Shown here in pieces: positions 27,366 to 57,387 of a DNA stretch of 64,000 nt. Positions within the stretch are counted from its first letter, which is position 1. Every line of letters begins with the position of its first letter. Both the position numbers and the translations under genes were made by a program. The stretch is from a virus. The stretch is taken from IMG/VR virus record IMGVR_UViG_3300035660_000006, one strand, 5' to 3'. The notes beneath the pieces are model-generated. The model saw nothing but the letters and a program-made list of their open reading frames with translations. It had not been told where the DNA came from and made no database searches.

Positions 27366-27575
27366 TTGCACAAAAAAAATTCGGAAAAACAAAATTTACT
27401 TAATTATTGGTTTGAAGCAGAATATGATAGATGTGTAAAGGCATTTAGGCAAACATTTGGTTATGATTATCAAGTTAAACTTTCAGTTGAAGAAGAATTG
27501 GATGAAATGAATAAAGATGTTAAAAAAGCACCAATGTGGCAACTGAAAGAATTAGTTAATTATTTGAAAGAATAG
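27366..27575 (+). CDS. small protein, (M)HKK start with TTG initiation codon
   Basis: AAGGTGAAATAATTGCACAAAAAAAA: the conserved context is retained but ATG becomes TTG. Confidence 0.4.
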   Translation: MHKKNSEKQNLLNYWFEAEYDRCVKAFRQTFGYDYQVKLSVEEELDEMNKDVKKAPMWQLKELVNYLKE

Positions 27576-27836
27576 GTGATATGATTGCACATAATATCAG
27601 AAGTTAGAAAACAATTTCATCAAGATGCTTTAGAAGAGCAAGAAAGAATGTATGGAAGCGATTAATTATGGTTCATAAACAAGAAAGAGCAAAATTATTA
27701 AAAAGAAAAAGAGAATTAGAAAGAGAAATTGAAATAGCCACTGAAGGAAGTATAGCAGATTATGAAATAAAAGAATTTTTAGATGAGAATGAAAAAGAAA
27801 TATTAAAAATTGAAAAAAAATTAAAAGGGAAATGAT

Positions 27837-35829: not shown

Positions 35830-36549
35830 TTATCTCTTCTCCAAAATTATCTTACCTAAACATATTATTCCATTTAGAGCATTCATAAGACCATCTTTAA
35901 TTTTTGTTCCTCTTCCTTTTATGAAAGATGATTCAACTGGAATATAAAATATTTTTCCACCTCGTCTGCCACAAATAATATTTGATTCAATTTCAATTGA
36001 ATATCTTGCACTGGAACTGTATTTCAGCAAATTCAAAGCCATTTCATAATTATACAACCTGTATCCACTTTCGCTGTCTTTTATTTTAAGACCAGAAAAC
36101 AATGAACTTAATTTATTCAAAAAATAATTTCCTAACTTTTTGGAGAATGGATATTTTGACAAGTCTCTTTCTCCAACAATTAAAATAGGTGCAATTTTCA
36201 AAAGAGATGTAAAATTTAATAATTCAATCATATCAACAAACTTGGGAATATATTTTGGGTCTAACTGCCCATCAGCATCCACCATTATCAAAGCATCATT
36301 TTCATTGAAAATTTTATTTGTCATAAGATAATATATCATATACCTCAATGTGCTTCCTTTTCCAAGATTGCATGGGTTTGAAATGACACTTGCTTTATTT
36401 CTTTCTGCAATTATTCTTGTTTTATCAATGCTTCCATCATCAAATACATAAATAAATTTGGTATATTTTCTCACTTTTTTAATTACTTCGCCTATAGTCT
36501 TTTCTTCATTTTTTGCAGGAATTCCAACAATAATTTTTCCCATTGTCAT
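35830..36549 (-). CDS. GT2-family glycosyltransferase (dolichyl-phosphate sugar synthase-like)
   Basis: VFDDGSIDKT; VDADGQ (DxD). Confidence 0.8.
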   Translation of the reverse strand: MTMGKIIVGIPAKNEEKTIGEVIKKVRKYTKFIYVFDDGSIDKTRIIAERNKASVISNPCNLGKGSTLRYMIYYLMTNKIFNENDALIMVDADGQLDPKYIPKFVDMIELLNFTSLLKIAPILIVGERDLSKYPFSKKLGNYFLNKLSSLFSGLKIKDSESGYRLYNYEMALNLLKYSSSARYSIEIESNIICGRRGGKIFYIPVESSFIKGRGTKIKDGLMNALNGIICLGKIILEKR

Positions 36550-38250: not shown

Positions 38251-38451
38251 ATGGTTTTTTTACCAAAAGCGACCATAAAAAGAATGATAAAAGAATATTA
38301 TCCAGACGATATGATAAGTAGTAAAGCAATTGAGAGATTAATAGTCCAAGCAGAAGATTTTATCAGGATGACATATCTTGATGCAAGAAAGTTTGCAGAC
38401 GCAGGAAACAGAAAAATGGTATCAGAAAAAGATGTAATTCTTGCGACATAG
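38251..38451 (+). CDS. archaeal histone-fold protein (HMf-like)
   Basis: LPKATIKRMIKEYYPDDMISSKAIERLIVQAEDFIRMTYLDARKFADAGNRKMVSEKDVILA versus HMfB [61 protein letters not shown]. Confidence 0.6.
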   Translation: MVFLPKATIKRMIKEYYPDDMISSKAIERLIVQAEDFIRMTYLDARKFADAGNRKMVSEKDVILAT

Positions 38452-38757
38452 AGGAAATGTTTGGTTATTTGTGGGATATAGGTTTCAAAACCATTGCTGT
38501 TTTCCCCTATATTCAAAAATGAAATTAAACCCATTACTCACAAACAACTAAAACACCTCAAATAAAAAGTGAAAAAAATGGCAAGAGCATGTCCAATACT
38601 TATGATAGGAAGAACAGAAGACAAATCAGAATGCATAGGAGAAAGATGCATGTGGTTCATTCCAGCGATTAATGAATGCATATTTCCAGCAATCAACAGA
38701 AGTATCTTTAAAAATATAGAAATCAAAAAATAATTATAAAGTGTCCACTTACTTAGT

Positions 38758-39336
38758 GTGGAAGAGAGGAGAGTATTGCAATTTAGGATATTTGGTAGAG
38801 TATTCACTATTTTCTGGAAAAAAAGTGGAAAAGATTATTCTTTCAATTTTAGGTCTACATTTCTTGAAAAACCATGCGTGGGGATTAATAGCAATGTTTA
38901 TGGTTCTGATATTTATAAAAACCAACTTCATTTTTTTATGGGGGATTTTGATGATATTCTTACATTGAAGCAATTAAAGAAAAAGGTTAGGGAAGTTCAG
39001 GACAGATTTAAGGATTTAGTTGGCGATGGATATATTTACGAAACTTCACCAAATAAGTTTTCTCTGCATTTCTATCAGTTATCAACTTACTGGGAGTGGA
39101 TGAAGGTAATTCATTTTCTTAATGATTGTTTGGATACGAGTTATGTGCGATGGCGTCTCAGGAGAAATTCGATGGTCATGCGATTATCACCTAAATCTTC
39201 TGGTTATATTCCAAAACTTATTGAAGTTGTGAAAACAAAATATCACAAAGGAGAAGACGAGTTTTCAAAAAGAATGATTTTGCAAAATTTAAATAGCGAG
39301 GTGAAAATAAAAGATGGTTCATACACCAAGAATTGA
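38758..39336 (+). CDS. archaeo-eukaryotic primase (AEP/PrimPol)-like protein candidate
   Basis: DxD (FFMGDFDD), SxH (KFSLHFY) and motif-III-like (MVMRLSPKSSGY) in the right order. Confidence 0.4.
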   Translation: MEERRVLQFRIFGRVFTIFWKKSGKDYSFNFRSTFLEKPCVGINSNVYGSDIYKNQLHFFMGDFDDILTLKQLKKKVREVQDRFKDLVGDGYIYETSPNKFSLHFYQLSTYWEWMKVIHFLNDCLDTSYVRWRLRRNSMVMRLSPKSSGYIPKLIEVVKTKYHKGEDEFSKRMILQNLNSEVKIKDGSYTKN

Positions 39337-39943
39337 AGAGCCAACAATATTCATTCCAACACTTGAGCAATGGAAAGCACCCAGCGATGAAGAAATAAAA
39401 AGAAGAAGGGAATTTAGCGTAGTTCTATACGCCCCAAAATATGATGAGAAACTGAGAGAAGAAGCGACAATAACTTATAATGAAACAGATGGAACATTTG
39501 AAGTAGAGATAACAAAAGTTGGAAAAGCGAAGTGGAGTGAAAATTTAGGTAGATTTAGTTCTTATGAAGAAGCGAAGGCAAAACTTTATAGTAGATTTGA
39601 TGATTTATTTAATACACCATCCCCAAGTGGGATGGGTGGTTCATGGGATTATGATAAAGATGGAAATCAAAGAACATCAAGCCATCCAGCGATGCAGACT
39701 AAAAGAAGCATATCATTAATCGAAGGAGATGAAGCAGAAGCAGTATTGAAAGCAAGAGTGGAAAGTGTAGAGTTTACACCTAAAGGAAAGAAGATGAAAT
39801 CTTATACAATAAGAGTCCCAGATACAGGTATGCCAACAATGATTTCTGTGCGAACACTTTACCCTTCATACTTTAAACACATAGACCAATTGCACACCAA
39901 AAGAGTAGCAAGATTAAGAAGGATTAGACAGAGTAAAAAGTGA
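39314..39943 (+). CDS. hypothetical protein (209 aa)
   Basis: ORF. Confidence 0.45.
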   Translation: MVHTPRIEEPTIFIPTLEQWKAPSDEEIKRRREFSVVLYAPKYDEKLREEATITYNETDGTFEVEITKVGKAKWSENLGRFSSYEEAKAKLYSRFDDLFNTPSPSGMGGSWDYDKDGNQRTSSHPAMQTKRSISLIEGDEAEAVLKARVESVEFTPKGKKMKSYTIRVPDTGMPTMISVRTLYPSYFKHIDQLHTKRVARLRRIRQSKK

Positions 39944-40606: not shown

Positions 40607-40987
40607 CTATTTTAATTTTAAACTTTAAATATTATACATTTGAAAAATGAAAAGTTTTAAATTTTTGAAAATTTTAAATAAACAAATATGTATAGGTAAT
40701 GTCATGAATAAAAAATTAATTCTTCCATTTGTAATTTTGCTTCTATCATTTCAGATAGGGTTTTCTGCCGAAGGGTGTAATTTATATGTAATAACAGATG
40801 GTGGAGTATTAGTCTTTTTAGAATCAACACTTCATTTTATAATGAATTTGCTGATGTGCTGGTCTGGAATGTATGTTTTATTGTTTTTTATAGCGATAGC
40901 AGGTATTTTAATGATGATATTCAAGGCTTTCGGAAAATGGTGAATTAGATTAAAATATTTAAAAATTTAAAAATCAAAACAGATTGC

Positions 40988-42091
40988 ATGAAAAAACTTT
41001 CATTAATCTTACCACTCTTGATTTTATTATCACCAGTGTTGGGTGCAACATGCGAACAGACTTGTGCGAGTTCTGGATTTGATTATTATGTTTGTTCTGC
41101 TTTTGATTATACTGGTGCTTTCAGTTGCCATTTTTCATCTCCACTATCCTATTGTTATAATTCTTATACAGAAAAGTTTGGAACAGATTGTGCGACAAGA
41201 TGTTTTTGTTTTAAGATAAACGATTGTGGTTGCTCAAATCTGGAATGCAGTGGTGTTTGTGGAGTTTCTGGTTGTGCTGGGACTACTTTAAACATAAATT
41301 CTATCACAAGTTTACCAGCAGACACATTTCTTAATGATTATTCTACTTGGGATGTAAACATACAAAATACAGGAAGCATTTGTGCTTATACTTATGCCGA
41401 ATGTCATGTCAGGTCACCAACAGGAGTTAATTATTATGTTACTGATGGATGTGGTTCAATTCCTGCTGGTTCAACACATACAGTTTATCCACAAAGACAA
41501 GTGAATGAAATAGGAACTTGGCAATTATTATCTTGTAGCATTTATGAAGCACAAGGGGAAGGAGTATGTCAAGCACCAATGATATATAGAGATGAATATG
41601 ATTTTTCTCCAACACATACTTGGGATGTTACAACGTCTTCTTGTCCCCCAACAACATTTGGGGAATGTCCATCAGGTTATGATGGATATTTTCAATGTTT
41701 TGCAAATCATATAGGTCATTGCGAATTTTATTCAGGGATAGGAAAATATTGTTGGACAGATTTTAGAAATTGTCAAACTTTCTATTTGCCAGAAGTGAGA
41801 TGTTGTTCTGCTGGTGCATGTGTTCCTTGCACAGGAACAACTACTACAACAATAGCAGGAACTACAACTACAACATTAAGTGTAACAACTACCACATCAG
41901 AAATTGGTGTTTCAAATTTGGATGAACCATTCAATACAACTGATATGCCAGATGAATTAAGATTTATGAATAATCTCGCAACAGGTCTTTTTAATATGTC
42001 TGGCTCAATAATTGCAGGTTTATTTTTATTGATATTAGCCTTATCTATTGCAACAATATTAATAGTAATAGGAAAGAGGTCGTTAACGTGA
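40988..42091 (+). CDS. secreted Cys-rich, Thr-linker, C-terminally membrane-anchored glycoprotein candidate
   Basis: signal peptide; about 40 Cys; TGTTTTTIAGTTTTT linker; C-terminal TM. Confidence 0.6.
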   Translation: MKKLSLILPLLILLSPVLGATCEQTCASSGFDYYVCSAFDYTGAFSCHFSSPLSYCYNSYTEKFGTDCATRCFCFKINDCGCSNLECSGVCGVSGCAGTTLNINSITSLPADTFLNDYSTWDVNIQNTGSICAYTYAECHVRSPTGVNYYVTDGCGSIPAGSTHTVYPQRQVNEIGTWQLLSCSIYEAQGEGVCQAPMIYRDEYDFSPTHTWDVTTSSCPPTTFGECPSGYDGYFQCFANHIGHCEFYSGIGKYCWTDFRNCQTFYLPEVRCCSAGACVPCTGTTTTTIAGTTTTTLSVTTTTSEIGVSNLDEPFNTTDMPDELRFMNNLATGLFNMSGSIIAGLFLLILALSIATILIVIGKRSLT

Positions 42092-42762
42092 AGAAATATA
42101 TTATTTTAATGATGCTGTTTTGTTTAGTGTTTATTCCAACTGTTATGTCAGTAGAAGTAACTAATGAATCAAGAGAATATGTCAGATACAGAAAAGAAGT
42201 CAGCAATTTCACACAAGAATTTTTATATTTTGATAATTTTGATGGGAAAAACTTTTTTGTTCAATTTTTAGTAATCCCACAATTAAGGGTATATGGTTCA
42301 CCAGAAACCATTTCAATTTGGAATCCAGTTCTCTATTTTCAAAGAGGAAGTGAAATTATTGGTGTTGATACTTCTTCTTGCTGGAAATGGTGGGGCAATG
42401 CTTCAAATCAACAAGAGCAAAGACAAAATGAAGATTGTCCAACTGTATCGTTTGAAATGAAAGCCAATGATAAAAGTATGACAATTTATATGTTTACAAA
42501 TGGAACAGTAAAACCAGCCCCAGCATTTATTACATATTATTATGGATATTCAACAGCGTATGCAGACGATAAAATAATTTATAGTGATACAAGAAGAATT
42601 GCATCAAACTCTTTAACAGAATTTTTTACACTTAATCTCAATATATGGAAAGGTGCTTACTATTTGTTAATAGTTATTATTATGGTTATTGGTGTTCTAT
42701 TTTTTGTGGGTGGAATACCATTATTAATCAAAAAAATAATAGTAAAAGTGAGTGGGGGATAA
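42088..42762 (+). CDS. signal-peptide plus C-terminal TM protein, SCWxWW family paralog A
   Basis: TSSCWKWWGN motif; C-terminal TM anchor. Confidence 0.55.
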   Translation: MKKYIILMMLFCLVFIPTVMSVEVTNESREYVRYRKEVSNFTQEFLYFDNFDGKNFFVQFLVIPQLRVYGSPETISIWNPVLYFQRGSEIIGVDTSSCWKWWGNASNQQEQRQNEDCPTVSFEMKANDKSMTIYMFTNGTVKPAPAFITYYYGYSTAYADDKIIYSDTRRIASNSLTEFFTLNLNIWKGAYYLLIVIIMVIGVLFFVGGIPLLIKKIIVKVSGG

Positions 42763-43553
42763 TGAGAAAAGACATTTTAATATTAGCAGGAATTTTGTTA
42801 GCAATACCAATGGTTTTTTCAATTATGCAAGACCCAAGAACATTAACTGATTTATGGTATTACATTCCTAATTATACAAATTGTTTGGGAAATTCTGATG
42901 GTTTAACACCAATTCCAATTGAAGGGACTTGTGAAAATCTTTGGATGTTTATTTTTACAAATAACACACCATCACAAATAACAACACAATTAATTCCAGC
43001 ACCAAATATGACTTGTTATCGCAATAATCAAAATTGTCCTTTAACAGGATATTATACTAATATGAGTTTTAAGGCAGACATACAGGGAACTTTTCTACCA
43101 TTTGGAATGTATATTGGTGGTGCGAAATCTTCAAACCATTCTGTTGATGTTGGGAGTTGTTGGAATTGGTGGAACACAACAGATGAAGAATTGAGAAGGT
43201 ATCAAAGGTCTTTCTGTCCAATAACAACAATTTCTTTTGGAAGATTTGATAAAGGTGCAGTTCTTTGGTTTTGGTGGGCAGATGTGCCTTATCCATTTGG
43301 AACAGCACAACCAGACACTTTCATTTCTTTCAAAGGTTATGGGGGAACTATGTTTAATGTTGACAATATGTATAGTCCAGATGCCCAATCAATGTTTAGT
43401 GCAATAAGAAGTTATCTAAACATTTCACTTTCACTTTGGAGAATACTTTATTATCTTGTAATGATTGTATTTATTATAACAGGAATATTTTTTGTTTTAG
43501 GAGTTTTGCCTATGGGTTTAAGATGGATAATTAAAAAAATAACAGAGGATTGA
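42763..43553 (+). CDS. signal-peptide plus C-terminal TM protein, SCWxWW family paralog B
   Basis: start at Met MRKDILILAGILLAIPMVFS; VGSCWNWWNT motif; C-terminal TM. Confidence 0.55.
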
Positions 43554-43772
43554 TATGGCAATATTAGGATTAGATGCAATAAACAGATTTTTTGATTCGT
43601 TATATGCTTATTGGGTCGGATATTGGAATGCTTGGGGAGTTCTTGGGATGGCTCTATTTTTTATAATTGCCCAAATTTCAGCAGTTTGGTTCTATATTAA
43701 AATAATGAATGCACTAATAAATTTTGAGCCAAAAGTAAGATTGTTTATTAATAGAGTGATGCTATTTTTTGA

Positions 43773-46139
43773 TTAAAATCTTTTTGAAAGCGATTTCATT
43801 CCAAACAATATAGCCATACCTATACCACCAAGAAGTATCACAATAAATATTGGCTGGACACATAGAATCAAAGTTATAGTTGATTTAAGAATAGATGTAA
43901 TGAAACACATTATATTTGCAGTGCATACTCCAATCTGCCCACAATAAAATCCACTTGGTGGAAGAGGTGTTCCTGTTTCCAGATGATAGACACTATTGTT
44001 CTGCGAGAATATCATCTCCATATTGTTTCCATGATTTGTGAGCCAAATCTCCTGAACTGAATTATTATTAAGATTTAAATAACAATTTGGAATGAATTGT
44101 TCTTTGTCTGCGTAAAGCGTATTTCCGACAACATTCAAATCACTTGAATTAAATTTCATCATTAATATTCCATTCTCTCCACCAACATTAAATGGTGAAG
44201 CGATATAACATTCAGTATCGGAAACACAAGTCATTCCAGAATGTGAACTGATTGGCTCATTATTATAATTTTTCACCTTATAAAATGATATATTAAGTGG
44301 TGGGCTTGGGGGACAGCAATAATTATAACTGGTTGAAAAATTATCTAAAGAATAATTAAGAATATGTAACTCATCATTCCATAAATGGAAGAAATGTGTA
44401 GAATTTCTTGTCATAGATGATGGGACATATAATCTTTGTGTGCCTCTCATAATTCCCAAAGTTGTTGACCTATTAAATGTTTCCAATTCAGTTGCACCAG
44501 AACCTTGCCAGAACCACCAATTCCAAAAATGCCTGTCTTTATATGGGAATGTATTAATATCTCCCCCATCATAAAATGACTTTACAGAAATTGAATCTTG
44601 AGAAAGTGGGGGGCTTGACCAATAAAAATACCATTCACCTTCCAAGTGATTCCAACTATTTCCAATACCATAATATTGTTGAAATATAACTGCTGTATCA
44701 TAATATCCCTGTTCATGCCCAACACGAATAGCCCAATGATAATTATCATCAGTATGAACAAATTTTGTAAATTCACTTACATGGGATATACAACCACATG
44801 AAGGTTCATCGCATGGCTGATTTGGAAATAACCAAAAATAATCCACATCATAAGTATTTGCGTTATCAATAATTATTGTTCCAACAAGATTCCAATTCTT
44901 ATCATATTTGTAGATATGAGTATTGTTGTTGAGATAATAATTATCCCTGCTTTCAGAAAATCTGAAATAAGTTGTAATATAACAAGCACAAGATGTTGGG
45001 TCAACAATATAATGTGGTTGCCAATCTATTGTTTCATTTTTCAATAATGCAGAACTAACTTTAGTCAAACTTAATGTGTTTGGATATGAAACAGCAGAAC
45101 AACTCGAATTATAAGTTATGTCTGGTGGGTGTGCTTGAAGTGTTGTTGTGGTGGTTGGGGGTGGTGGAATATTTTTAACTAAAGGATAATTATCATAATT
45201 AAAAACATTCCCTGTTTTTGAAAGTGGAAGGGGATAATCACAAATATAATCTAAATTATTGTCAATACAAAACATATCAGACCAACCTAAACCATTCAAT
45301 GAAGTATAATAATTTCCACCTATTAATGAGCCTTGAATTATGTTTGTCCCTGAAGTTAGAGTAGTATTCCATTGTGAGTTTGGATTTCCCATCGCTTGAT
45401 ATATGCATTCTGGGTGAGTGCAATCTGTAGGGCTGACCCAAATATTATTATAGAATGTAAGATTTCCACTCAAAGAAACAGTTCCAGTAATATTCACTCT
45501 TGTTATTAGGCTTCGCAAATTTCCCTCATTTCCATGTTTTAAATAAGTTAAATTTGAATCTGTTATTGTTGTATTGCGACCATCCACTGATAAACTTCCT
45601 TTGATATATTTGAATGTGTTATTTCCAAAATGATAAGAAATACTATCATGTGTGCAATGTATTGTCCCACTGATATTTTCAAAATAATCAAATCCAGTAA
45701 TTCCAAAACAATCAATAACATTATTAACAGTTATATTTTTTGAATAACCATAAAGGGCATTACCATAAGCAATATCCCAAAATGAACTTGGATTATTAAA
45801 ATAGAGATTTTCATATTTGAAATAATTTGTGCCATAAGAATGTAAACCATAATACCAATCGGTAACTGAACAATTGTAAATTGTTGTATTGTGTGCGTTA
45901 TTATCCAAGCCAGTAGTTCCCCATGTTTGAATTCCATCAACTCTATGACCCTGACAGTCCAAAATTATATTATTCGCAGAGAAAGTCATACAGGTTGAAG
46001 CACCTGAATTGATAATATCTGCTGTCAAATAATAGACTGTGTTTGCTGAATTCATATTAGTGCAAACATTGATATTTACTGCCGAAACAATCTGAAAACA
46101 AAACAGAATAAAAAGCATAGAGATGATATTTTTTTTCAC
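43773..46139 (-). CDS. large secreted, membrane-anchored protein rich in N-glycosylation sequons (788 aa)
   Basis: signal peptide; dozens of NxS/T; C-terminal TM; possible beta-helix-like repeats. Confidence 0.65.
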   Translation of the reverse strand: MKKNIISMLFILFCFQIVSAVNINVCTNMNSANTVYYLTADIINSGASTCMTFSANNIILDCQGHRVDGIQTWGTTGLDNNAHNTTIYNCSVTDWYYGLHSYGTNYFKYENLYFNNPSSFWDIAYGNALYGYSKNITVNNVIDCFGITGFDYFENISGTIHCTHDSISYHFGNNTFKYIKGSLSVDGRNTTITDSNLTYLKHGNEGNLRSLITRVNITGTVSLSGNLTFYNNIWVSPTDCTHPECIYQAMGNPNSQWNTTLTSGTNIIQGSLIGGNYYTSLNGLGWSDMFCIDNNLDYICDYPLPLSKTGNVFNYDNYPLVKNIPPPPTTTTTLQAHPPDITYNSSCSAVSYPNTLSLTKVSSALLKNETIDWQPHYIVDPTSCACYITTYFRFSESRDNYYLNNNTHIYKYDKNWNLVGTIIIDNANTYDVDYFWLFPNQPCDEPSCGCISHVSEFTKFVHTDDNYHWAIRVGHEQGYYDTAVIFQQYYGIGNSWNHLEGEWYFYWSSPPLSQDSISVKSFYDGGDINTFPYKDRHFWNWWFWQGSGATELETFNRSTTLGIMRGTQRLYVPSSMTRNSTHFFHLWNDELHILNYSLDNFSTSYNYCCPPSPPLNISFYKVKNYNNEPISSHSGMTCVSDTECYIASPFNVGGENGILMMKFNSSDLNVVGNTLYADKEQFIPNCYLNLNNNSVQEIWLTNHGNNMEMIFSQNNSVYHLETGTPLPPSGFYCGQIGVCTANIMCFITSILKSTITLILCVQPIFIVILLGGIGMAILFGMKSLSKRF

Positions 46140-46145
46140 TTTTTT

Positions 46146-46616
46146 TCACCTTAAATATGGATTCTGTTGTTTATTTTTTAATAAAATTGCATACAGTATT
46201 CCAAACACCATAATAATTATTGTAATTGAAATTATTAAAGTTTTAAAAATTTTCATATTTTTGTCTTTTGATGAATTTATTGGTTGTGTTTGGTTGAGAG
46301 AAATATCCATACATTTGTAGTATCCCAAAAGTCTTCTCTCAAAGATGAAATAATATTCATTGACAACATCTTCTGGGTATTGCTTTATTTCACTTTCTGT
46401 CGCAAGTCTTGGAGTATCCAAGCGAACTCTTTCTTCAAGTTTACAGATAATATTTTCTTCTGTAAAATTTCCTCTTATTTTTGGGACAATAGGCATATTA
46501 GTGAAATTCCACTTTTCTGTTGGATTCTTAATATTTGTTGCGATATAGTTTGCTTCTTGGGATAAGGCTTGATTTATCACAAGCAAGAACGCTATTAGAA
46601 ATAGAATGCTTCTCAT
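46146..46616 (-). CDS. signal-peptide plus C-terminal TM protein (156 aa)
   Basis: hydrophobic termini. Confidence 0.5.
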   Translation of the reverse strand: MRSILFLIAFLLVINQALSQEANYIATNIKNPTEKWNFTNMPIVPKIRGNFTEENIICKLEERVRLDTPRLATESEIKQYPEDVVNEYYFIFERRLLGYYKCMDISLNQTQPINSSKDKNMKIFKTLIISITIIIMVFGILYAILLKNKQQNPYLR

Positions 46617-46730
46617 ACCAAATTATTTAACTTTCAAAGTTAAAAGTATTAGTAAAAGAACCCCAAACAAATTAATTGAAAATTTTTAAATATTTATAAA
46701 TTCAAAAAAGATAGTAATTAAGTGAAGGAA

Positions 46731-47303
46731 ATGAAAAAATCCATAATACTCTTATCAATCTTATTGTTGCTACCTTTAATTCAAGCACACACAGTTACAC
46801 TAAAATTATATACAGACTTGCAGAAGACACAGGTTTACTCAAACGAATTCTTATGGGCTTATCTCCAGAACAAGACATTTGTGGGTGGAGAATTAAGTTA
46901 TAATGTATCTTGTTTTAACGCAAAATACACAGGTGGTCAGGCATTAGTCTTATCTGTTCCAACAGGATATTACGATGTCCTGTTTGTTGATGGTGCAATT
47001 TCTTGGAATAATAACACCAATTGCCCAGATAGAGCAGACAACTACGATATTTGGGCAACAGCACAGAGTAATGTTCTGATAGATGGGGACAAAACACTCG
47101 ATTATTTTGTCAACACAACATTGATTGCCCCACCGAGACAATACTTCTGGAATATTTTAAGTTTCAGGGCAATTATTTCAATAATAGTATGGATTTTAAT
47201 AGGTGCGTTGTGTTTTGTTGTAGCATGGAAAACAAATTCAGGGTTGGCAGTAGCAATATTATTTCTAATCTGCTTGATTGTCAAATTGCTTCTTGGGGTT
47301 TGA
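46731..47303 (+). CDS. signal-peptide plus C-terminal TM protein
   Basis: ATG at 46731 after TATA-like motif at 46678. Confidence 0.5.
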   Translation: MKKSIILLSILLLLPLIQAHTVTLKLYTDLQKTQVYSNEFLWAYLQNKTFVGGELSYNVSCFNAKYTGGQALVLSVPTGYYDVLFVDGAISWNNNTNCPDRADNYDIWATAQSNVLIDGDKTLDYFVNTTLIAPPRQYFWNILSFRAIISIIVWILIGALCFVVAWKTNSGLAVAILFLICLIVKLLLGV

Positions 47304-49056
47304 GGTAATAATTATGGGTAAATCTATAAGGAAATTTGCAATAATATTTTTCTTCTTTTCTTTATGGTTTGCTCTATCTAATATTACTTATCTCGTTCTT
47401 GCTCAAGAAATGGAAACTTATAAAGGGGATTTAACTTATAATGATTTTATTGACGAAAGGGGTATAGATTGGGAAGTAAAATTTGAACCTCAAAATAATA
47501 TAGATAAGATAGTATCTTCTGTCATATATATTGATTTAGTATCTGTTCCAGCAACAGCAGAAGATATTTTAATGAAATTAACTGTTAATGACGAATTACA
47601 TTGTTCTCCAGAAATATTCAAATTAGATGGATTTGAAGGTTCAAAAAAAATTAAATTTGATTGTTCTGGAGTAATTAATCGACAAGGACTTTATAATTTA
47701 CATTTATCAACAACACAAGTAATAAAAGGAATATCTGGAAGTTATGAAATTATTTATTATATGACTCCTTCTTGGCAGAAAACAATCGAAGATATTGAAA
47801 AGAAAATTAATGAAACTTCTTGGCAGAAGTCAATTGAGAATATTGAAAAAAGGATGGAAAATAAAATAACAATGGGAACAGGTGGAACTGAATATCAAAT
47901 GAATGATAATGCGAGAATTTTTGCAAGACTTCTTGATGGAAATTCCAGACCAATAAATATTGCTTCCTGCAATGCTACTGTTTATTATCCTAACAATACA
48001 AAACTTTTAAATAATGTTCCTTTAACACTTCTTGAAAAAGGAATTTATTATTATGATTTTACAACACCAAACATCACAGGAAACTACATAACAGTTTTTG
48101 ATTGCATTTTTCCTTCAATACCTTTTATTCAGAATATATCGATTAATGTTCCATTAGCATCTTTAGAGAGGTATAATGGGGAGTTTCTTTTTGATAATTC
48201 AAATAATATAACGATTAATTCTGCTTATATGACTTGGGTAGCAGATTTATCAGCAACAGGAGTAATTTTCCAAACACAATTCAACTATCAAGTAATCAAT
48301 CAAACAACAGGAATAAAAGCATTAATATTGTTCAATAAAACTCTAACTCAAAGTGATTTTTTAACCATTTCAGAGCAAGTATTTCAATTTCAAAATTTAG
48401 GTTCTGGAACTGCTACAGTTTATTATGCAAGATTATATGTCAATTATACTTGGAATGACCCACAACAAATCATTAGAGGTCAGGATGAAGTTCATATCGG
48501 AAGTGGAAATGTTAGTTATGTAGACTCTGTAGGAAATGTTTCTTATGTTGATACTGTTGGAAATGCAAGTGCAACATTCAGAGATTTAAGATATGCTGGT
48601 GGAACTGAATATTTTTCTGGCACAGAAGGGCAGATTACTTATCAATTTTTAGAAACTTCTCAAGGAAATCCAAGTCCAATAAATACTGCAAATTGTAATA
48701 TGACAATATGGTTTCCTAATAACTCATTGTTTATCTCAAATCAGAATATGCCTTATCTTTCAGGAAGTTCAGGTATTTATGTAACAAATTTTACAGTTCC
48801 ATCGACACAAGGAGTATATAAAACAAATGCAATCTGTTATTCATCACCAAAATGGAGTTATGGTGCTTCAACTTTCCATGTAGAGAATACTTTATACAAT
48901 AATCAGCAAACAATCTACAGTTTCTTACAAGCAATGAACACAACTCTGGTAAATAACCAACAATATATAATCTCTCTGGTGCAGAATGTTTCCACCCAAA
49001 TAACTACCTCATGGGATACATTTTGGGATTCAGTAAGTGCAAGGATAACCAGTTGA
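47278..49056 (+). CDS. secreted protein with two copies of the CN-x-T...YPxNT...FT-P...G-Y....C domain and internal tandem repeats
   Basis: signal peptide; paralogous to 49109 and 51213; 48-nt and 27-nt tandem repeats. Confidence 0.65.
   Translation: MSNCFLGFEVIIMGKSIRKFAIIFFFFSLWFALSNITYLVLAQEMETYKGDLTYNDFIDERGIDWEVKFEPQNNIDKIVSSVIYIDLVSVPATAEDILMKLTVNDELHCSPEIFKLDGFEGSKKIKFDCSGVINRQGLYNLHLSTTQVIKGISGSYEIIYYMTPSWQKTIEDIEKKINETSWQKSIENIEKRMENKITMGTGGTEYQMNDNARIFARLLDGNSRPINIASCNATVYYPNNTKLLNNVPLTLLEKGIYYYDFTTPNITGNYITVFDCIFPSIPFIQNISINVPLASLERYNGEFLFDNSNNITINSAYMTWVADLSATGVIFQTQFNYQVINQTTGIKALILFNKTLTQSDFLTISEQVFQFQNLGSGTATVYYARLYVNYTWNDPQQIIRGQDEVHIGSGNVSYVDSVGNVSYVDTVGNASATFRDLRYAGGTEYFSGTEGQITYQFLETSQGNPSPINTANCNMTIWFPNNSLFISNQNMPYLSGSSGIYVTNFTVPSTQGVYKTNAICYSSPKWSYGASTFHVENTLYNNQQTIYSFLQAMNTTLVNNQQYIISLVQNVSTQITTSWDTFWDSVSARITS
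47773..47868 (+). repeat. 48-nt tandem repeat x2 inside a CDS (WQKTIEDIEKKINETS / WQKSIENIEKRMENKI)
   Basis: direct reading. Confidence 0.7.
48503..48568 (+). repeat. 27-nt tandem repeat x2.4 inside a CDS (GNVSYVDSV / GNVSYVDTV / GNAS)
   Basis: direct reading. Confidence 0.7.
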
Positions 49057-49064
49057 AAATATTG

Positions 49065-49087
49065 AAAATATTTAAATATTTGTAAGT
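49065..49087 (+). promoter_or_regulatory. conserved palindromic promoter element GAAAATATTTAAATATTTGTAAG
   Basis: identical to the 60625 copy; ATG 22 nt downstream. Confidence 0.6.
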
Positions 49088-49108
49088 TCTAAATAATAAT
49101 AGATTATT

Positions 49109-50008
49109 ATGAAGATAACCAAAAAAAATATCTTAATGTCGATGTTTGTCCTCTCAATTACTCTATTTTCAGTAATGGCTATGTATGGTGAAAAGGTTGT
49201 ATCCGATGGAAGAATTGCTTGGGTATCACACACAGAATATTGGTCTAACGAGGAAGGGCAGAGCATCGTAAGACTTCAAGATTTTCAGGGCAGACCAATC
49301 ACAGCAAATTGGTGTAATGTAACCATTTATTATCCTGACAAGACTGCATTTGTCACAAACCAGCCTATGCTTGTAAATTCTATCGTTGGCAATTATTATT
49401 ACAATTTTACAACCCCAAACACTATGGGTATTTATGAAGAATTTGTAAATTGTTCTTATGGGAGTCCAAATGAAAAGTTTGTTTCAACTTCTGAATCATT
49501 CCACATGAATCCAGCACTTAATATGACTTGGTATCTAAACCAATCCTTGTCAGATTTGAATATTACACTAAACAATTATGGGGTAAACATAACAGCAATA
49601 AGGAATGACACTATGTATATTGTCGACAATATGGTAAACAAAACTAACTTTGACGATTGGAAGAATAACGCAACAAACCAATTCAGCGATGTAAAGACAA
49701 ACCTGACACTCGCAATAAATGGATTATGTAATACAACCGACAGCAATTCAAGTGATATGTGTCAATTATTGTGGAATATGACAGCGTTCCAACAAGCACA
49801 GAACATAACTTTCACTAATTACTTCGAGAACATAACAGAGACTACAACAAACCTGTGGAATTTTACTTCAGGAACTTTATTTAATAAATTAAATGATACT
49901 TATAATCTGGTCTTCGATATAAATGTAACAGTTAATAAAATACAAGAAAATGTAACAGCAATAAGACAAGACCAAGTTGATGATGTTCATATTAATATAA
50001 TTAGTTAA
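49109..50008 (+). CDS. secreted N-glycosylation-rich protein, WVSHTEY family
   Basis: WVSHTEYWSNEEGQ...CNVTIYYPDKT...NFTTPNTMGIYEEFVNC. Confidence 0.65.
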   Translation: MKITKKNILMSMFVLSITLFSVMAMYGEKVVSDGRIAWVSHTEYWSNEEGQSIVRLQDFQGRPITANWCNVTIYYPDKTAFVTNQPMLVNSIVGNYYYNFTTPNTMGIYEEFVNCSYGSPNEKFVSTSESFHMNPALNMTWYLNQSLSDLNITLNNYGVNITAIRNDTMYIVDNMVNKTNFDDWKNNATNQFSDVKTNLTLAINGLCNTTDSNSSDMCQLLWNMTAFQQAQNITFTNYFENITETTTNLWNFTSGTLFNKLNDTYNLVFDINVTVNKIQENVTAIRQDQVDDVHINIIS

Positions 50009-50017
50009 GGTGAAAAA

Positions 50018-50305
50018 ATGCACGAATGGAAAAAAGTTGGTTATGTTGGTATAGATAGTGGAACTTTAATTTTAACTGACCCTGCTTACATGAAAGAAAA
50101 TTTACCAACTTATGAAGAATTAGTTGGTTTAAAGAAAAGCAGTAAAGTCAAAGGAGACATAACAAAAGAAGTTAAAGTTGGTGGAAGTAGTGCAGTAGTT
50201 ACAAATACAGGTTATGGAGATGGAAAATATCCTGTTTATGCCAAAATAACTGATGAAGGGAAATGGGGAAAAAGAGTTTCAGAGATAAAAGTAAAGTTTA
50301 TTTAA
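50018..50305 (+). CDS. small protein, MHEWKK start (M(V)HKK array 2)
   Basis: AAGGTGAAAAAATGCACGAATGG. Confidence 0.5.
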   Translation: MHEWKKVGYVGIDSGTLILTDPAYMKENLPTYEELVGLKKSSKVKGDITKEVKVGGSSAVVTNTGYGDGKYPVYAKITDEGKWGKRVSEIKVKFI

Positions 50306-50478
50306 ATAAAGGTGAAAAATATGCACAAAACAAAATATATGCTTTCAGATTGGACAAAAGAAGGTTTGAAAGAATTAGGTTTGTCGGAAAATAAGTTTAA
50401 TAAAATGTCAAAAAAAGAGCAGAAAGATTTAATTAAAGAACTTAAAGAAATGGGGCATTGGTAAATAAAGGTGAAAAT

Positions 50479-50727
50479 ATGGTTCATAATATAAGAAAAT
50501 GTGAAGCATGTCAAAATGCTGGTATTCAATGGAGATTACTCGATGAATTAAGACCCACAGCAAAACCATACAATGTATGTTCAAATTGCTTAATTGAATT
50601 GACAACAACATCACTTAAACCAAAAGAATTTAAAAATCTTCTAAAAAGTGGGCATAAAGAAGGAGAATTTTTATTGCATGAAGATTTTTACGATGAGAAG
50701 GGAAGAGCATTGCAACCAAAATGTTAA
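50479..50727 (+). CDS. small zinc-ribbon protein, MVHNIRK start
   Basis: AAGGTGAAAATATGGTTCATAAT; CEACQ...CSNC. Confidence 0.45.
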   Translation: MVHNIRKCEACQNAGIQWRLLDELRPTAKPYNVCSNCLIELTTTSLKPKEFKNLLKSGHKEGEFLLHEDFYDEKGRALQPKC

Positions 50728-51212
50728 AGGTGAAAAAAATGGTTCATAATGTCTATAAAAAATGGACTGAAAAAACGAAGGAAAAACTAAAAACAAAAAT
50801 AGATAAATTAAATCCATCTCAATTGGGTTATCTTGAAGAGATAGTTGATTCTGAGTTTTAAATTAAGGTGAAAAATATGCACAAAAAATGGAAAAAAAGA
50901 GATGTTTACGAATATATGGGTGCAGGTTTGCCAGAATATTTTGAGGGTAAACTCGTCTATGTTGGCAGACCAAGAATGAAAGTGAAAATCAAAAAGAAAA
51001 AGTGAGAATATGCACAAAAAAAAGAAATATCCATTAGTATTAAAATGGAAAAGTGTTTACGAAGCACCACAAGAAGAAATAGAAAGAAGATTCAAGAAAA
51101 TGTATGGGAAAAAACCAACTGAAGAAGAAATGAATGATATTCTTCTTGAAGGGGAATTCTAATAATTTGAATTTTTTTAAAAATTTAAATTCTTGAAAGT
51201 TAAATATTAATC

Positions 51213-52040
51213 ATGAAAATATTCACTTGGACTAATCTTGCAATATTCATTCTCTTCGTTTCATTAATAGGATTAGGAATTTATACGATAAACAAACCAT
51301 CAGAAAAGTTCGAGCAGAAGAGTCCTGAAGAAGCGTATCTTAATTGGGTTTCCCACACAGAATATATTGCTGGTGATACTACTGGGCAGGGAATAATATC
51401 TGTAAGTGACTATAAAGGAAGACCTTTGAATGCTTCATGTCTGCTCTCGCTGGTTTATCCTGACAATACTTTTGTGTTTACTGATTACGCTATGAGTCCT
51501 TCTATCATCGCTGGAAACTACTATCGTATATTCACAGTTCCGAACACATTTGGGGTATATACAGAGTTCGTAAACTGTTCTGTCCAGTTAAATCCAGCAG
51601 TAAATATTTCTGGAAGCAAAAGCAATTCAATCCATGTCAACCCAGCATTTGATTTTCTTGTCAATATTTCACAGAACATAACAGACTTGAAGCAAGAGTT
51701 TGTTAATTTCACAATTGATGTGCAGAATAATTTTACATACACAAACAATCTGATAGATAATCTTAATGATAGTTTAGTAATAAATTTGAACAATACTAAC
51801 CAATTAATAATTAATTCCACAAATAATATATCGACAAGTATCACAAATTTCAGAAATGAGGCATACACTTGGTATATAGACATAATAAGCAGAATATACA
51901 ATTGTTGTGAGAGATGGATAGAAGAAATCGGCAAGTTGGGGACATTAGGTGGAAATATGATACAAAGACTACCAACTGGTGGTGGAACTTCGCAGACTAA
52001 TATGCCAAGTTGGTTAAAAAGAATAATTGGTGGTGATTAA
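51213..52040 (+). CDS. secreted N-glycosylation-rich protein, WVSHTEY family paralog
   Basis: WVSHTEYIAGDTTGQ...VYPDNT...FTVPNTFGVYTEFVNC. Confidence 0.65.
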   Translation: MKIFTWTNLAIFILFVSLIGLGIYTINKPSEKFEQKSPEEAYLNWVSHTEYIAGDTTGQGIISVSDYKGRPLNASCLLSLVYPDNTFVFTDYAMSPSIIAGNYYRIFTVPNTFGVYTEFVNCSVQLNPAVNISGSKSNSIHVNPAFDFLVNISQNITDLKQEFVNFTIDVQNNFTYTNNLIDNLNDSLVINLNNTNQLIINSTNNISTSITNFRNEAYTWYIDIISRIYNCCERWIEEIGKLGTLGGNMIQRLPTGGGTSQTNMPSWLKRIIGGD

Positions 52041-53071: not shown

Positions 53072-53875
53072 ATGAAGAAGTGTAAATATTGTAAGAACGA
53101 ACTTAAAAACCCTAAAAGAAGTTTTTGTAATCAAAAATGTTGGCATAGTTATTATTCTAAATATTATTCTGGAAAAAATAATCCTTGTTTTGGTATTAAA
53201 AAAAATGGAGAATACAAAAAATGTTCAAATTGTGGAAAAAAAATATGGGTTGTAAATAATAGATTGAGAAGACTAAATAATTATTTTTGTAATAGAAAAT
53301 GTTGGAGAAAATCAGAAAAGGAGTCAATAAAAGTCTTATGTAAATTTTGTGGAAAAGAAAAAATAACATACCCTTATGATAAGAATATAAAGAGAAATCA
53401 TTTTTGTAGTCAAAAATGTAAAGCAAAATGGCAGAGTGAAAATCTCAATGGAAAAAATAATAATAATTTTAATAATTATTGGAATAATCAACAAAAAAAA
53501 TCTCTTGGCGAAAAACAAAAAATAAGATTAAGAGAACATCCAGAAAAACATCCAAATAGAATTCTTGCAAAAAATGGACATATATCAACACCACAAAAAC
53601 AACTCTTCAAATTAATCAAATATTATTATCCTTCTGCTGAATTAAATCATAGAGTTATAACTAAAAATGGGTTTGGGCAAAGACATGCTGATGTTGGTCT
53701 CCCAGAATTTAAACTTGACATCGAATTTGATGGAGATTATTGGCACAACCCAGAAGATGATAGAGAAAGAGACCAAGAACTTCTCGAAGTTGGGTGGAAA
53801 ACTATTAGATTTGGTTATAAAGATTTGAAGACACCAGAAATGATAATTAAGAAAATAAAAGAATGGTTAAGTTAA
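53072..53875 (+). CDS. homing-endonuclease-like protein: three FCS-type zinc fingers plus a Vsr/DUF559-like PD-(D/E)xK domain
   Basis: CxxC...FC(N/S)xKC three times; C-terminal FDGDYWHNPEDD...GWKTIRF. Confidence 0.65.
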   Translation: MKKCKYCKNELKNPKRSFCNQKCWHSYYSKYYSGKNNPCFGIKKNGEYKKCSNCGKKIWVVNNRLRRLNNYFCNRKCWRKSEKESIKVLCKFCGKEKITYPYDKNIKRNHFCSQKCKAKWQSENLNGKNNNNFNNYWNNQQKKSLGEKQKIRLREHPEKHPNRILAKNGHISTPQKQLFKLIKYYYPSAELNHRVITKNGFGQRHADVGLPEFKLDIEFDGDYWHNPEDDRERDQELLEVGWKTIRFGYKDLKTPEMIIKKIKEWLS

Positions 53876-54732
53876 TCTTGAGGCTTTCCTATCGGCTGAT
53901 TTGTCTTGACTACCCACCGAGCATAAGGATTCATATTTATTAATTCACGACTAATATTAGCAAAATCTTCAACTTGGGCATATAGGGTATTGATTAATGC
54001 CCCATCTTTCTCTCTTTCAAAAACTTCTAATTTTCCATCAACAATATTCCCTGCTTTATCCCTCAAAACAGGATAGAAAAAATATCTTACCCTTTCAATT
54101 CCCACACCCTTAATAATAATTTTATCCCCATCTTTGATTGAAATATCATGCGTTAACTCAACAGTTTTTGTTTCTTCTGTTCCATCTTCCTTTTTTATCT
54201 TGTATTTGTATAATTTGTTGAGATTACATCTGATAATAAAATCTTCTTTAACAAGGTCGAAGAAGTCTAACCTAATCGGAACAGCAAATAAATACCATTT
54301 TTTATATTTCCAAAGACGAATATTTTGAAAACCATCTTGAGTTATGCATTCACCTAAATATTTTCCAAGATATTTCATTCCTTTATCATGAATAAGCCAA
54401 ACTTCTTTAATTGTTGGGTCTTTCTGAAATTTGCATAGACTTTTCACTTTTTTGTAATCTTCCAAGAAGACATCAACTTTCACCTTCATCCTCTTAATAA
54501 GCAAAATAATGAAAACTATAATCACTCCTGCGACTGCTATAACAATAAACCAGAGCCAATACTTTGCGATAAATCCAATTACCCCAGAAAATACTCCTGT
54601 GCTTTTTGATGGGATTGGCTCTATTACATTCTGTGCGAGAATAGGAAAGATTAAAAATAGAATTGTTAGTATGGGTAAAAACTTTTTCATGCAATAATAT
54701 TTAGATTTTAACTTTAAAAACTTTAAATCCAA
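53872..54732 (-). CDS. membrane-anchored hypothetical protein (286 aa)
   Basis: N-terminal TM segments. Confidence 0.5.
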   Translation of the reverse strand: MDLKFLKLKSKYYCMKKFLPILTILFLIFPILAQNVIEPIPSKSTGVFSGVIGFIAKYWLWFIVIAVAGVIIVFIILLIKRMKVKVDVFLEDYKKVKSLCKFQKDPTIKEVWLIHDKGMKYLGKYLGECITQDGFQNIRLWKYKKWYLFAVPIRLDFFDLVKEDFIIRCNLNKLYKYKIKKEDGTEETKTVELTHDISIKDGDKIIIKGVGIERVRYFFYPVLRDKAGNIVDGKLEVFEREKDGALINTLYAQVEDFANISRELINMNPYARWVVKTNQPIGKPQD

Positions 54733-57063: not shown

Positions 57064-57387
57064 TTGAAGAGATTGGAATTTATTAAAAATAATACTTCAA
57101 CAAAATTAAACACACCATATTTTATTATTGTTCATAGCATAGCAAGAAACATGGCAAGACCATTAACATTCCCAATTGAAGTCAAGACTGGGAAAAGACA
57201 GACAAGGGAATTTGAACTCGGAGAACTCATTCAAGAATTAGAGGAAGCACATATTAAAATTAACGAGATAGAACAGCAGATTGCCCAGAATTATTCAATA
57301 GATATTCCACTCAACCAGCAAGGACAGGCTATTGTATTTGATTTCAATAATCCAAAGCAAGGTATGGAAGACAGATTCAAATTTTAA
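57064..57387 (+). CDS. hypothetical protein upstream of the endonuclease gene
   Basis: ORF. Confidence 0.4.
   Translation: MKRLEFIKNNTSTKLNTPYFIIVHSIARNMARPLTFPIEVKTGKRQTREFELGELIQELEEAHIKINEIEQQIAQNYSIDIPLNQQGQAIVFDFNNPKQGMEDRFKF

Follow-up and report, generated by a model that had tools for sequence, protein, structure and literature searches.

DPANN archaea are abundant, almost uncultivated and dependent on cell-surface contact with their hosts. To our knowledge, very few of their viruses and plasmids have been characterised outside the Nanohaloarchaeota. Viruses of the pleolipovirus type are known for nanohaloarchaeal DPANN (10.1101/2025.02.15.638363; PMC10791045), and a conserved membrane-protein module together with an ATPase is typical of viral morphogenetic modules, for example those of pleolipoviruses (10.1101/2025.02.15.638363). 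The present analysis deals with a block of surface-protein genes at positions 40647-52040 in a stretch of 64,000 nucleotides from the IMG/VR virus record IMGVR_UViG_3300035660_000006; this whole stretch is called the window. The block is best read as the host-recognition and surface module of a new virus or plasmid family of DPANN archaea. More specifically, it was taken as the surface half of a core module defining an undescribed family of DPANN mobile elements, most likely membrane-containing viruses, and a probability of about 55% was assigned to this reading.

The locus was compared with the closest described systems. The module of Pleolipoviridae (VP3, the VP4/VP5 spike, ORF6/7 and the ATPase) is similar in its membrane-protein cluster with an ATPase and its exchangeable replication modules; the spike also has a signal peptide and a C-terminal anchor like the block proteins, a likeness of general architecture only. 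The elements described here are however 3-8 times larger and encode many more surface proteins, their ATPase is only weakly RecA/DnaB-like, and the three proteins of cellular origin (family B, described below) have no pleolipovirus counterpart. Searches of PHROGs and Pfam gave no match for homologues of VP3, VP4, ORF6/7 or the pleolipovirus ATPase. In tailed phages the mosaic receptor-binding proteins (fibres and spikes), and in spindle-shaped archaeal viruses the large terminal adhesins, also join a constant docking part to a swapped hypervariable part with sharp breakpoints, and they employ the parallel beta-helix as an accessory adhesin or depolymerase-like module, the likeness here being to the helix predicted for the protein p788. 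The polarity is reversed in the block, as the conserved part of p592 is C-terminal. Unlike tailed-phage fibres, the block proteins are predicted membrane-anchored or secreted glycoproteins and are not assembled in the cytoplasm; no tail or capsid genes were found in the hallmark search, which covered roughly 50 proteins of the window and its relatives. Archaeal S-layer stalk proteins, such as SlaB of Sulfolobales and tetrabrachion of Staphylothermus, combine a beta-sandwich with a long, glycosylated, membrane-anchored coiled-coil stalk. The periodicity of the NxS/T sequons in p299 (about 10-11 residues) recalls the hendecads of these stalks, whereas family B is anchored N-terminally and not C-terminally, no sequence relationship was detected and the stalk model is of low confidence. 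Membership of the locus in pleolipovirus spike modules, phage receptor-binding proteins or S-layer stalk families is not supported.

The window has a GC content of 31% and carries most of its genes on the plus strand. An earlier note, made from the letters of the DNA alone, had described the block as secreted, Cys- and sequon-rich, mostly C-terminally anchored proteins, and the coordinates and strands that it gave for the open reading frames (ORFs) at 40647-52040 were reproduced (Table 1). Signal peptides and transmembrane (TM) segments were called by a Kyte-Doolittle hydropathy scan and a (-3,-1) cleavage-site heuristic. These calls gave signal-like N-termini in ten ORFs of the block, as had been claimed: p79 (from either start), p367, famA1, famA2, p788, p156, p193, p592 (from either start), p299 and p275. 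Six of these ten also had a predicted anchor at the C-terminus. A C-terminal TM segment followed by a short basic tail was observed in p367 (..GKRSLT), famA1, famA2, p788 (..KSLSKRF) and p156; two C-terminal TM segments were seen in p193 and two hydrophobic helices in the small p79, while p592, p299 and p275 lack a C-terminal TM segment. The enrichment against the rest of the window was significant for N-terminal hydrophobic segments (8/14 block ORFs against 11/92 others, Fisher p=4e-4) and for a signal combined with a C-terminal TM segment (6/14 against 4/92, p=3e-4). The sequon density was 2.59 per 100 amino acids (aa) for the block and 0.53 for the rest of the window, a roughly 5-fold difference, and 1.8 times the expectation from the block's own composition. 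The Cys content was likewise raised (2.8% against 1.6%), chiefly owing to p367 (28 Cys) and p788 (26 Cys).

The two paralog families that had been noticed were recovered. The genes of family A, famA1 and famA2, matched each other with E=6e-17 and the SCW.WW motif in register; in family B, p299 matched p275 with E=8e-27, and p592 contained two domains of the family (E about 1e-12), placed by a hidden Markov model at aa 170-314 and 412-560. The poly-Thr linker reported for one member was also present, in p367. In a four-sequence alignment of p367 homologues (A8) the Cys residues were nearly all invariant, and the Thr-rich linker and the tail were conserved. The description of the 788-aa protein as repeat-rich did not hold, as its best off-diagonal self-match scored 16.9 bits, compared to 15.8-23.5 bits in shuffled sequences. 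Pfam, PHROGs and NCBIfam gave nothing above the curated cut-off for the ten block proteins, but only sub-threshold noise, and p367 also had no match among PDB sequences. The ratio of nonsynonymous to synonymous substitution rates (dN/dS) between the window and its closest relative, L038, was 0.025-0.36 for all alignable genes, indicating purifying selection and functional genes. The block is a real, conserved set of predicted exported, mostly membrane-anchored, sequon-rich surface proteins, and predicted export and sequon richness fit glycosylation.

Relatives were gathered by homology searches with p299, p193 and the ATPase, and p193 as bait gave 10 related loci. The carriers of the module (L007/L008, L038, L039/L040, L002-L004/L047, L048/L049 and L050) are all metagenomic with 31-37% GC. 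The window likewise comes from a metagenome, and a JGI contig of 73 kb encoding an identical p788 was taken as its parent. The core module is co-linear over about 18 kb, roughly 38758-59604, with the block forming its surface-protein half, and it was present in at least five divergent element lineages (contigs of 13-33 kb) at 26-95% aa identity. The shared order is p192, p209, p79, p367, one or two famA genes, p73, the slot of p788 with p156, and p193, followed by the p592-type, p299-type and p275-type genes, p286, small TM proteins, the gene at 57064 and the ATPase at 58513. The gene set is incomplete in some lineages, and the module always ends at the same ATPase wherever the contig extends that far. 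The gene p193 is an element-specific core gene directly upstream of the family B genes. L048 and L050 also hold famA-type genes, together with genes of 72-73 aa at the position of p73. The 29-kb type, recovered as independent assemblies of similar size in several samples (25.7, 29.1, 29.2 and 29.3 kb), has no recognisable p367 or famA; it carries analogous proteins of 543, 506, 244 and 110 aa with signal peptide, Cys-rich and sequon-rich sequence and anchor, and a large share of the genome is given to such surface proteins. In L002 (15767-17632) the 506-aa and 110-aa proteins share the Cys-rich motif YCGD.ICQ..NGETQDNC just before their C-terminal anchors. Apart from insertion sequence (IS) genes, the scanned proteins of the elements had no Pfam or PHROG match.

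Table 1. Features of the block, of the core module around it and of other parts of the window. Signal, TM and domain assignments are predictions; identities (aa) are to homologues in relatives designated by L numbers, and dN/dS values are against L038.
Feature	Position	Strand	Description	Identity in relatives	dN/dS
p79	40704-40943	+	small membrane protein, signal-like N-terminus, two hydrophobic helices (hydropathy); alternative start 40647 gives 98 aa; candidate cleavage site between GFS and AEG	80/67/49% in L038/L039/L007	0.21
p367	40988-42091	+	signal peptide, disulfide-rich ectodomain (28 Cys), poly-Thr linker, C-terminal TM, GKRSLT tail	70/68/57%	0.26
famA1 (p224)	42088-42762	+	signal peptide, ectodomain with SCWKWW motif, C-terminal TM, basic tail	84% in L038, about 27% in L039 (locus replaced there)	
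famA2 (p264)	42759-43553	+	famA1 paralog, same architecture		
p73	43555-43776	+	small single-TM protein, no signal peptide, core gene (hydropathy)	79/59/26% in L038/L007/L047	0.10
p788	43773-46139	-	accessory cassette protein: signal peptide, N-terminal ~300 aa parallel beta-helix by homology, PPPPTTTTT linker, Cys-rich C-terminal domain, conserved C-terminal membrane anchor	64% in L039	
p156	46146-46616	-	signal peptide, ~100 aa ectodomain, C-terminal TM, basic tail	52/70/24% in L038/L039/L007	0.34
p193	46722-47303	+	signal peptide, ~125 aa ectodomain, two C-terminal TM helices	87/92/64/26% in L038/L039/L007/L047, 38-67% in L048/L050	0.067
p592-type	47314-49056	+	580 aa from ATG, 592 aa from TTG at 47278; secreted, cleavable signal peptide (between VLA and Q)	35-36% in L038/L039	
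p592 hypervariable cassette	47358-48486	+	no similarity to L038 (blastn)		
27-nt tandem repeat	48505-48565	+	2.3 copies, encodes GNVSYVD(S/T)V (TRF)		
p299	49109-50008	+	family B long-type: N-terminal TM anchor, Ig-like beta-sandwich, conserved Cys pair, helical tail	95/80/69/42% (L038 95%)	0.025
p95	50018-50305	+	small cytosolic accessory ORF between family B genes		
p89	50458-50727	+	small cytosolic accessory ORF between family B genes	78% in L008	
p275	51213-52040	+	third family B paralog: N-terminal TM anchor, Ig-like domain, sequon-rich tail, C-terminus ..SW.KRIIGGD	88% in L038, 78/60/37% in L039/L007/L047	
p192 and p209	38758-39943	+	upstream core genes outside the block		
p286	53872-54732	-	core membrane protein outside the block: signal-like N-terminus, TM, ~200 aa domain	33% L002, 54% L048, 63% L050	
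ASCE P-loop ATPase	58513-59604	+	distal end of core module; Walker A GGTRTGKS		
GT4	31122-32324	+	glycosyltransferase; PF00534, 102 bits, 3e-29		
PMT_2-type GT-C	32406-33866	+	glycosyltransferase; PF13231, 1.5e-7, 32.2 bits against a cut-off of 26.1		
TnpB	34381-35499	+	lies among the glycosyltransferase genes		
GT2	35830-36549	-	glycosyltransferase; PF00535, 53.7 bits, 3e-14		
MCM helicase	7993-10125		about 30% identical to Methanocaldococcus fervens tailed virus 1		
Cas4-like nuclease	12676-13404		PD-(D/E)XK type		
SPFH/band-7 protein	13950-14915		phrog_200		
MT-A70 methyltransferase	15315-16442				
M50-peptidase-like membrane protein	4428-4955				

The comparison of the window with its relatives revealed where the block varies. 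Window and L038 were co-linear at 79-85% nucleotide identity save for clean gaps at 43944-46427, 47358-48486 and 50011-50860. The p592 protein was only 35-36% identical to L038 and L039, while the neighbouring genes were 80-95% identical; against L038, p193 showed 87%, p299 95% and p275 88%, but p592 36%. In the alignment of p592 (A6) a cleavable signal peptide is followed by a divergent stretch (about aa 16-391), after which come about 190 well-conserved C-terminal residues. These include the hinge repeat GNVSYVD(S/T)V, family B domain 2 and the tail ..YNNQQTIYSFLQAMNTT..SW..FW.SVSARITS. The variable N-terminal two-thirds takes in family B domain 1, and the 9-aa repeat hinge precedes the conserved domain 2. 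At nucleotide level the cassette had no similarity to L038 (47358-48486) or to L039 (47358-48531), with flanks 74-84% identical (blastn), and the 5' breakpoint at 47357/47358 was the same in both comparisons. The 27-nt repeat marks the 3' edge of the cassette, its copy number varying among the window, L038 and L039 (A6). A dN/dS of 0.64 for the variable part of p592 was set aside as dS was saturated. The famA locus is variable too, 42096-43434 being replaced in L039 and without nucleotide similarity to it.

The p788 slot behaved in a similar manner, the gene being absent from L007, while in L038 the 56-aa anchor is kept (89% identical) but bears an unrelated ectodomain of 397 aa. The p788 protein itself had no Pfam match at E<=1; PF13229 and/or PF05048 were present in 11 of its homologues, with alignments (E=8e-23 to 1e-5) spanning the N-terminal 10-39%, and by homology to these proteins its N-terminal third is predicted to be a parallel beta-helix. 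The loci L034 and L036, contexts of distant p788 homologues, were rejected as instances of the same module, having only the beta-helix or signal region in common with it. Domain number and gene structure also varied. The number of family B domains in the p592-type protein is 1, 2 or 3, depending on the relative, and in L050 a single protein of 1,073 aa combines an N-terminal part like that of p592 with a C-terminus like that of p275, with no separate p299 or p275 gene; the C-terminal 115 aa of p275 correspond to the part fused there (39% identity). The variation is thus cassette replacement with sharp nucleotide breakpoints together with domain shuffling and fusion; replacement affects the N-terminal two-thirds of p592, the ectodomain of p788 and the famA genes. 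The earlier note had proposed a repertoire diversifying by duplication; duplication of domains is real (1-3 domains), but recent gene duplication as the source of diversity was rejected on the domain tree, with its three old lineages, and on the dN/dS of 0.025 for p299. Its suggestion of adhesins agrees with the pattern found, since specific parts of the block are hypervariable as expected of adhesin- or receptor-binding-like proteins.

The fold of family B was examined on an AlphaFold2 model of p299, which consists of a TM helix, a seven-strand sandwich at residues 35-133 with a predicted local distance difference test (pLDDT) score of about 85, and a helical tail. The top Foldseek matches of the sandwich in the PDB were 7o0b filamin (E=3.4e-5), 3idu CARDB, 6s5w Rib and 2p9r MG, with E=3e-5 to 1e-3, probability 1.0 and target template modelling (TM) scores of 0.5-0.75. 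On this model the core domain is a generic Ig-like/E-set beta-sandwich, and a viral fusion fold, to which the earlier note had suggested comparing the repeated domain, was not found among these matches. The fusion-fold check by structure covered the family B model only; there were no PHROG matches, and no PDB sequence matches for p788 and p367. Family B shares its fold with filamin repeats, CARDB, Rib and macroglobulin MG domains, but the identity is 12-19% with no Pfam match even at E<=1, and it differs in its own signature (VSHTEY..G.P..C..G.YY..F..P...G.Y...C..H.NPA), in a conserved Cys pair and in its fixed position right after the TM anchor. The conserved Cys pairs C69/C115 and C207/C218 and the conserved sequon asparagines fit an extracellular location. 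The p299 protein has 20 sequons, which in the tail (residues 138-281) are spaced by about 10 (9-11) residues, or about three helical turns; such spacing would put the glycans on one face of the helix. The C-terminus of p299 is conserved (..IRQDQ.DEV.I.IIS). Below threshold, a long cellular homologue matched long alpha-helical families (apolipoprotein, ZorA tail), which would fit an extended helical stalk.

The distribution of family B was determined by an exhaustive profile search, which gave 738 cluster representatives of 120-1665 aa, 111 of them at E<=1e-30, hypothetical or unnamed in every source. The GTDB was scanned with alignment A4 as query, one genome per species, and 21 genome loci were obtained, 19 of them labelled as DPANN lineages or unclassified archaea and 2 as Methanosarcinales. 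The DPANN labels comprise Woesearchaeota, Pacearchaeota, Iainarchaeota including a closed Forterrea chromosome, and Nanoarchaeia. The other two loci, L018 and L019, come from metagenome-assembled genomes labelled 'uncultured Methanosarcinales archaeon' and hold the family B pair at 32-33% GC, probably as DPANN contigs that were mis-binned and not as evidence for family B in Methanosarcinales. The cellular loci carry a tandem pair of a long (376-866 aa) and a short (212-277 aa) protein, with a GC content native to the respective genome (21-54%). Within the Iainarchaeota group its neighbourhood is conserved and comprises a MacB/FtsX ABC transporter, MscS, methyltransferases and IleRS. Cellular family B is also sequon-rich (2.53 per 100 aa against 0.60 in adjacent genes). 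The stretch free of charged residues at its N-terminus has a median length of 21 residues, closer to that of a membrane anchor than to that of a signal peptide removed by cleavage; a signal of class III (pilin-type) was ruled out by inspecting the N-termini.

In a neighbour-joining domain tree the cellular long and cellular short proteins formed separate clades, and the element proteins formed three clades (p299-, p275- and p592-type), each with members from the window, L007 and L002, and with the p299-type as sister of the cellular long clade; the tree carries no bootstrap values, and its topology is therefore provisional. The three paralogs are old, because each forms its own clade common to the window, L007 and L002, and p275 likewise kept to its own clade across the elements. 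Family B is of cellular origin, and the three genes of the window derive from a surface-protein pair of DPANN chromosomes. No earlier description of family B or of the element family was found in the literature, and both appear to be undescribed in curated libraries and in the searchable literature.

The earlier note had taken homologues that are ordinary host S-layer genes in a chromosomal context as counting against its proposal. Homologues of family B are ordinary chromosomal genes of DPANN archaea, while the rest of the block was found on element-like contigs only. The chromosomal homologues, and the relative L006, in which the family B pair adjoins L21e, Rpb4 and IleRS, that is ribosomal and tRNA-synthetase genes, could be taken to mean that the window is a genomic island of a DPANN chromosome encoding ordinary cell-envelope or S-layer-associated glycoproteins. 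This explanation is highly improbable. The 64 kb contain no tRNA, no rRNA and no Rfam family, no ribosomal or aminoacyl-tRNA synthetase gene was among those scanned, and the window is dense in mobile-element genes. The module recurs on contigs of about 29 kb in several samples and on contigs of 27-33 kb with unrelated flanks. In all 21 cellular loci the matches to the window were limited to the family B genes, and the other block genes were never within 10 kb of the cellular pairs. The window copies are three genes, lie among element-specific genes and fall in separate clades, so they are not the ordinary cellular pair. Besides the features in Table 1, the window contains ParB, LAGLIDADG and DUF559 endonucleases and many small unannotated ORFs, and it looks like a mobile element rather than a chromosome. 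MCM and histone-fold genes, both present in the window, occur in cells too.

The homology of the element copies to a conserved cellular surface pair, and the position of p299 as the most constrained block gene, as expected if it were fitted to host partners, would also suit decoys or exclusion factors that mimic the host pair, mask or replace a receptor and block superinfection. This role is improbable for the block, as it leaves unexplained the hypervariable secreted p592 cassette and the swapped p788 and famA ectodomains, as well as why the trio is core to every lineage beside membrane proteins and an ATPase. A further, rather improbable possibility is that family B is a conserved stalk or fibre of the DPANN episymbiont surface, perhaps contacting hosts, which the element captured, triplicated and provided with the p592 tip; the element would then enter DPANN cells via the symbiont's attachment machinery or re-program to which host the symbiont can attach.

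The nature of the element itself was considered next to its ATPase and virion hallmarks. The AlphaFold2 model of the ATPase (pLDDT 76) had RecA, RadA, Rad51, DnaB and KaiC as best PDB folds, and BFVD gave mixed matches (ATV ORF286, Zot, a phi2954 P4-like NTPase), also weak; PDB sequence searches with the ATPase, p788 and p367 were without match. Its Walker A motif resembles those of some TerL proteins, and the candidate assignment as a terminase was dropped, being unsupported by Pfam, PHROG and fold search. The ATPase is syntenic with the block in L048, L049 and L050. It has 16 homologues, three of which (P0189, P0191 and P0192) contain inteins (PF14890). Homing-endonuclease-like genes surround it at 53072-53875, 57387-58361 and 59656-60597, with DUF559/Vsr-type C-termini, and selfish insertions seem to be concentrated at this locus. 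The Caudoviricetes hallmarks (HK97-fold capsid, portal and large terminase) were absent from the roughly 50 scanned proteins, and a PHROG scan of the genes downstream of the ATPase in L048 gave no structural hallmark.

These results bear on a second serious explanation, namely a plasmid or integrative element that is not viral, and a block that remodels the DPANN cell surface and not a virion. The block would then supply alternative adhesins, including a replacement or extra family B pair, and change host attachment, cell-cell contact or vesicle transfer. The lack of a virion hallmark in the scanned proteins, an ATPase that is RecA/DnaB-like and not terminase-like, the presence of ParB and MCM as in a plasmid-like replicon, the descent of family B from a cellular surface protein pair and the lack of IMG/VR relatives all accord with it. 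However, the membrane-protein module with its ATPase is the best-kept part of elements differing more than 2-fold in size, no conjugation ATPase of VirB4 or TraG type was among the scanned proteins, and inteins and homing endonucleases, common in viral hallmark genes, surround the ATPase; none of these three observations is decisive. We lean towards a membrane-containing virus and regard a plasmid or vesicle-forming element as a serious, though less likely, rival. The proposal of an envelope or spike made by the earlier note stands as far as exported, sequon-rich, variable proteins on an element with its own glycosyltransferase genes are concerned, but no virion hallmark accompanies them; the scans recovered neither a capsid, portal or terminase nor a fusion fold, and a virion envelope is no more than an inference.

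Several observations count against a membrane-containing DPANN virus. The scanned proteins included no capsid, portal, terminase or A32-type ATPase and no member of a known structural family of archaeal viruses, and the scans covered the small ORFs of the window only in part. No relative was found in IMG/VR or INPHARED: scans of IMG/VR with p788, p299 and alignment A4, and tblastn against INPHARED with p299, p367 and the ATPase, gave no match. The fold matches of the ATPase are weak and generic (RecA-like ASCE; E about 5e-4, template modelling scores of 0.3-0.4). The helical tail of p299 has a pLDDT below 50, so the stalk is poorly supported structurally. Signal peptides and TM segments are based on heuristics and not on SignalP or TMHMM. 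The assignment to a DPANN host is indirect, drawn from family B homology, low GC and archaeal replication genes, and a joint structure of p299, p275 and p592 is suggested solely by the L050 fusion and the co-conservation of the three paralogs.

The GT4, GT-C and GT2 genes upstream, which had been put forward as a possible source of glycosylation, all scored above the Pfam gathering threshold. N-glycosylation would depend on the host, because the GT-C is PMT_2-like and no STT3/AglB match was found. The following mechanism is proposed. The block proteins would be exported via Sec, and six or seven of them (p79, p367, famA1, famA2, p788, p156 and p193) would lose the signal peptide and stay attached via C-terminal helices bearing short basic cytoplasmic tails. 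The ectodomains would carry disulfide bonds and would receive N-glycans at the dense sequons from the oligosaccharyltransferase of the host, and the Thr-rich linkers may be O-glycosylated with the aid of the element's PMT_2-type GT-C, GT4 and GT2. As copies of the ancient DPANN surface pair, p299, p275 and p592 would consist of an N-terminal anchor, an Ig-like sandwich and a glycan-coated helical stalk, and together they may form one fibre or spike, anchored by p299 and p275. The secreted p592 would dock by its conserved C-terminal domain and tail, with the hypervariable N-terminal part facing outward as the determinant of specificity, while p788, famA and p367 may act as further anchored adhesin- or spike-like proteins. 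Specificity would change by recombinational swapping of the p592 cassette, of the p788 ectodomain on its constant anchor and of the famA genes. Glycosylation, heteromeric assembly, target binding and virion incorporation are all conditional parts of this scheme.

Some further genes belong to the core module or lie within the block. Homologues of p192 and p209 occupy the same position in L007, L038 and L039, and homologues of p192 alone also do so in L002 and L047; neither had a family match in Pfam or PHROGs; in p192 (38758-39336, plus strand) primase-polymerase-like motifs (..GDFDD.., ..SLHFY..) were seen by eye. The p79 protein as a capsid protein of the spindle-virus type is speculation, with nothing to suggest it beyond size and two hydrophobic helices. 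The small ORFs p95 and p89 have no TM or signal segment by hydropathy and so are not surface proteins; both are absent from L038 and L039, and p89 is Cys-rich and zinc-ribbon-like. The p286 gene always sits between the family B genes and the ATPase. It adjoins an endonuclease gene and is on the minus strand in the window, whereas in L002, L048 and L050 it is on the plus strand and runs in the direction of the module; the difference looks like a local inversion.

Outside the module, a further TnpB (IS605 OrfB/Cas12f-like) is found in L002 (166-1263, minus strand) and in L047 (1264-2358, minus strand). The window TnpB is 94% identical to the copy of the 29-kb element, while the core genes are only 26-42% identical, which suggests that IS copies were exchanged recently and thus that the elements share a host or community. 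The product of 38298-38534 (minus strand), a small gene just upstream of the core module, is 69% identical to that of an L007 gene (69-272) with a histone fold (PF00808) and is a candidate element-encoded archaeal histone. At 21064-24317 (minus strand) a MoxR-type AAA ATPase (PF07728) is paired with a VWA protein having a long acidic low-complexity insert, and a 30-nt tandem repeat lies at 22098-22173. About 2 kb (25849-27837) contain no ORF of at least 100 aa.

The locus defines a recurrent, unannotated element family, for which p193, p299, the p592 tail, p286 and the ATPase can serve as search markers. It also reveals the large unnamed family B as a conserved surface pair of DPANN chromosomes, and provides a clear example of cellular surface proteins that a mobile element has exapted and diversifies through the exchange of cassettes; the exaptation of this conserved pair is the unusual feature among surface modules of archaeal mobile elements. 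Concrete candidates are thereby offered for receptor-binding proteins and glycoprotein biology in DPANN systems. If family B were indeed a captured DPANN attachment fibre, the element would act on the symbiosis interface itself and would give a handle on a surface structure found throughout the DPANN archaea.

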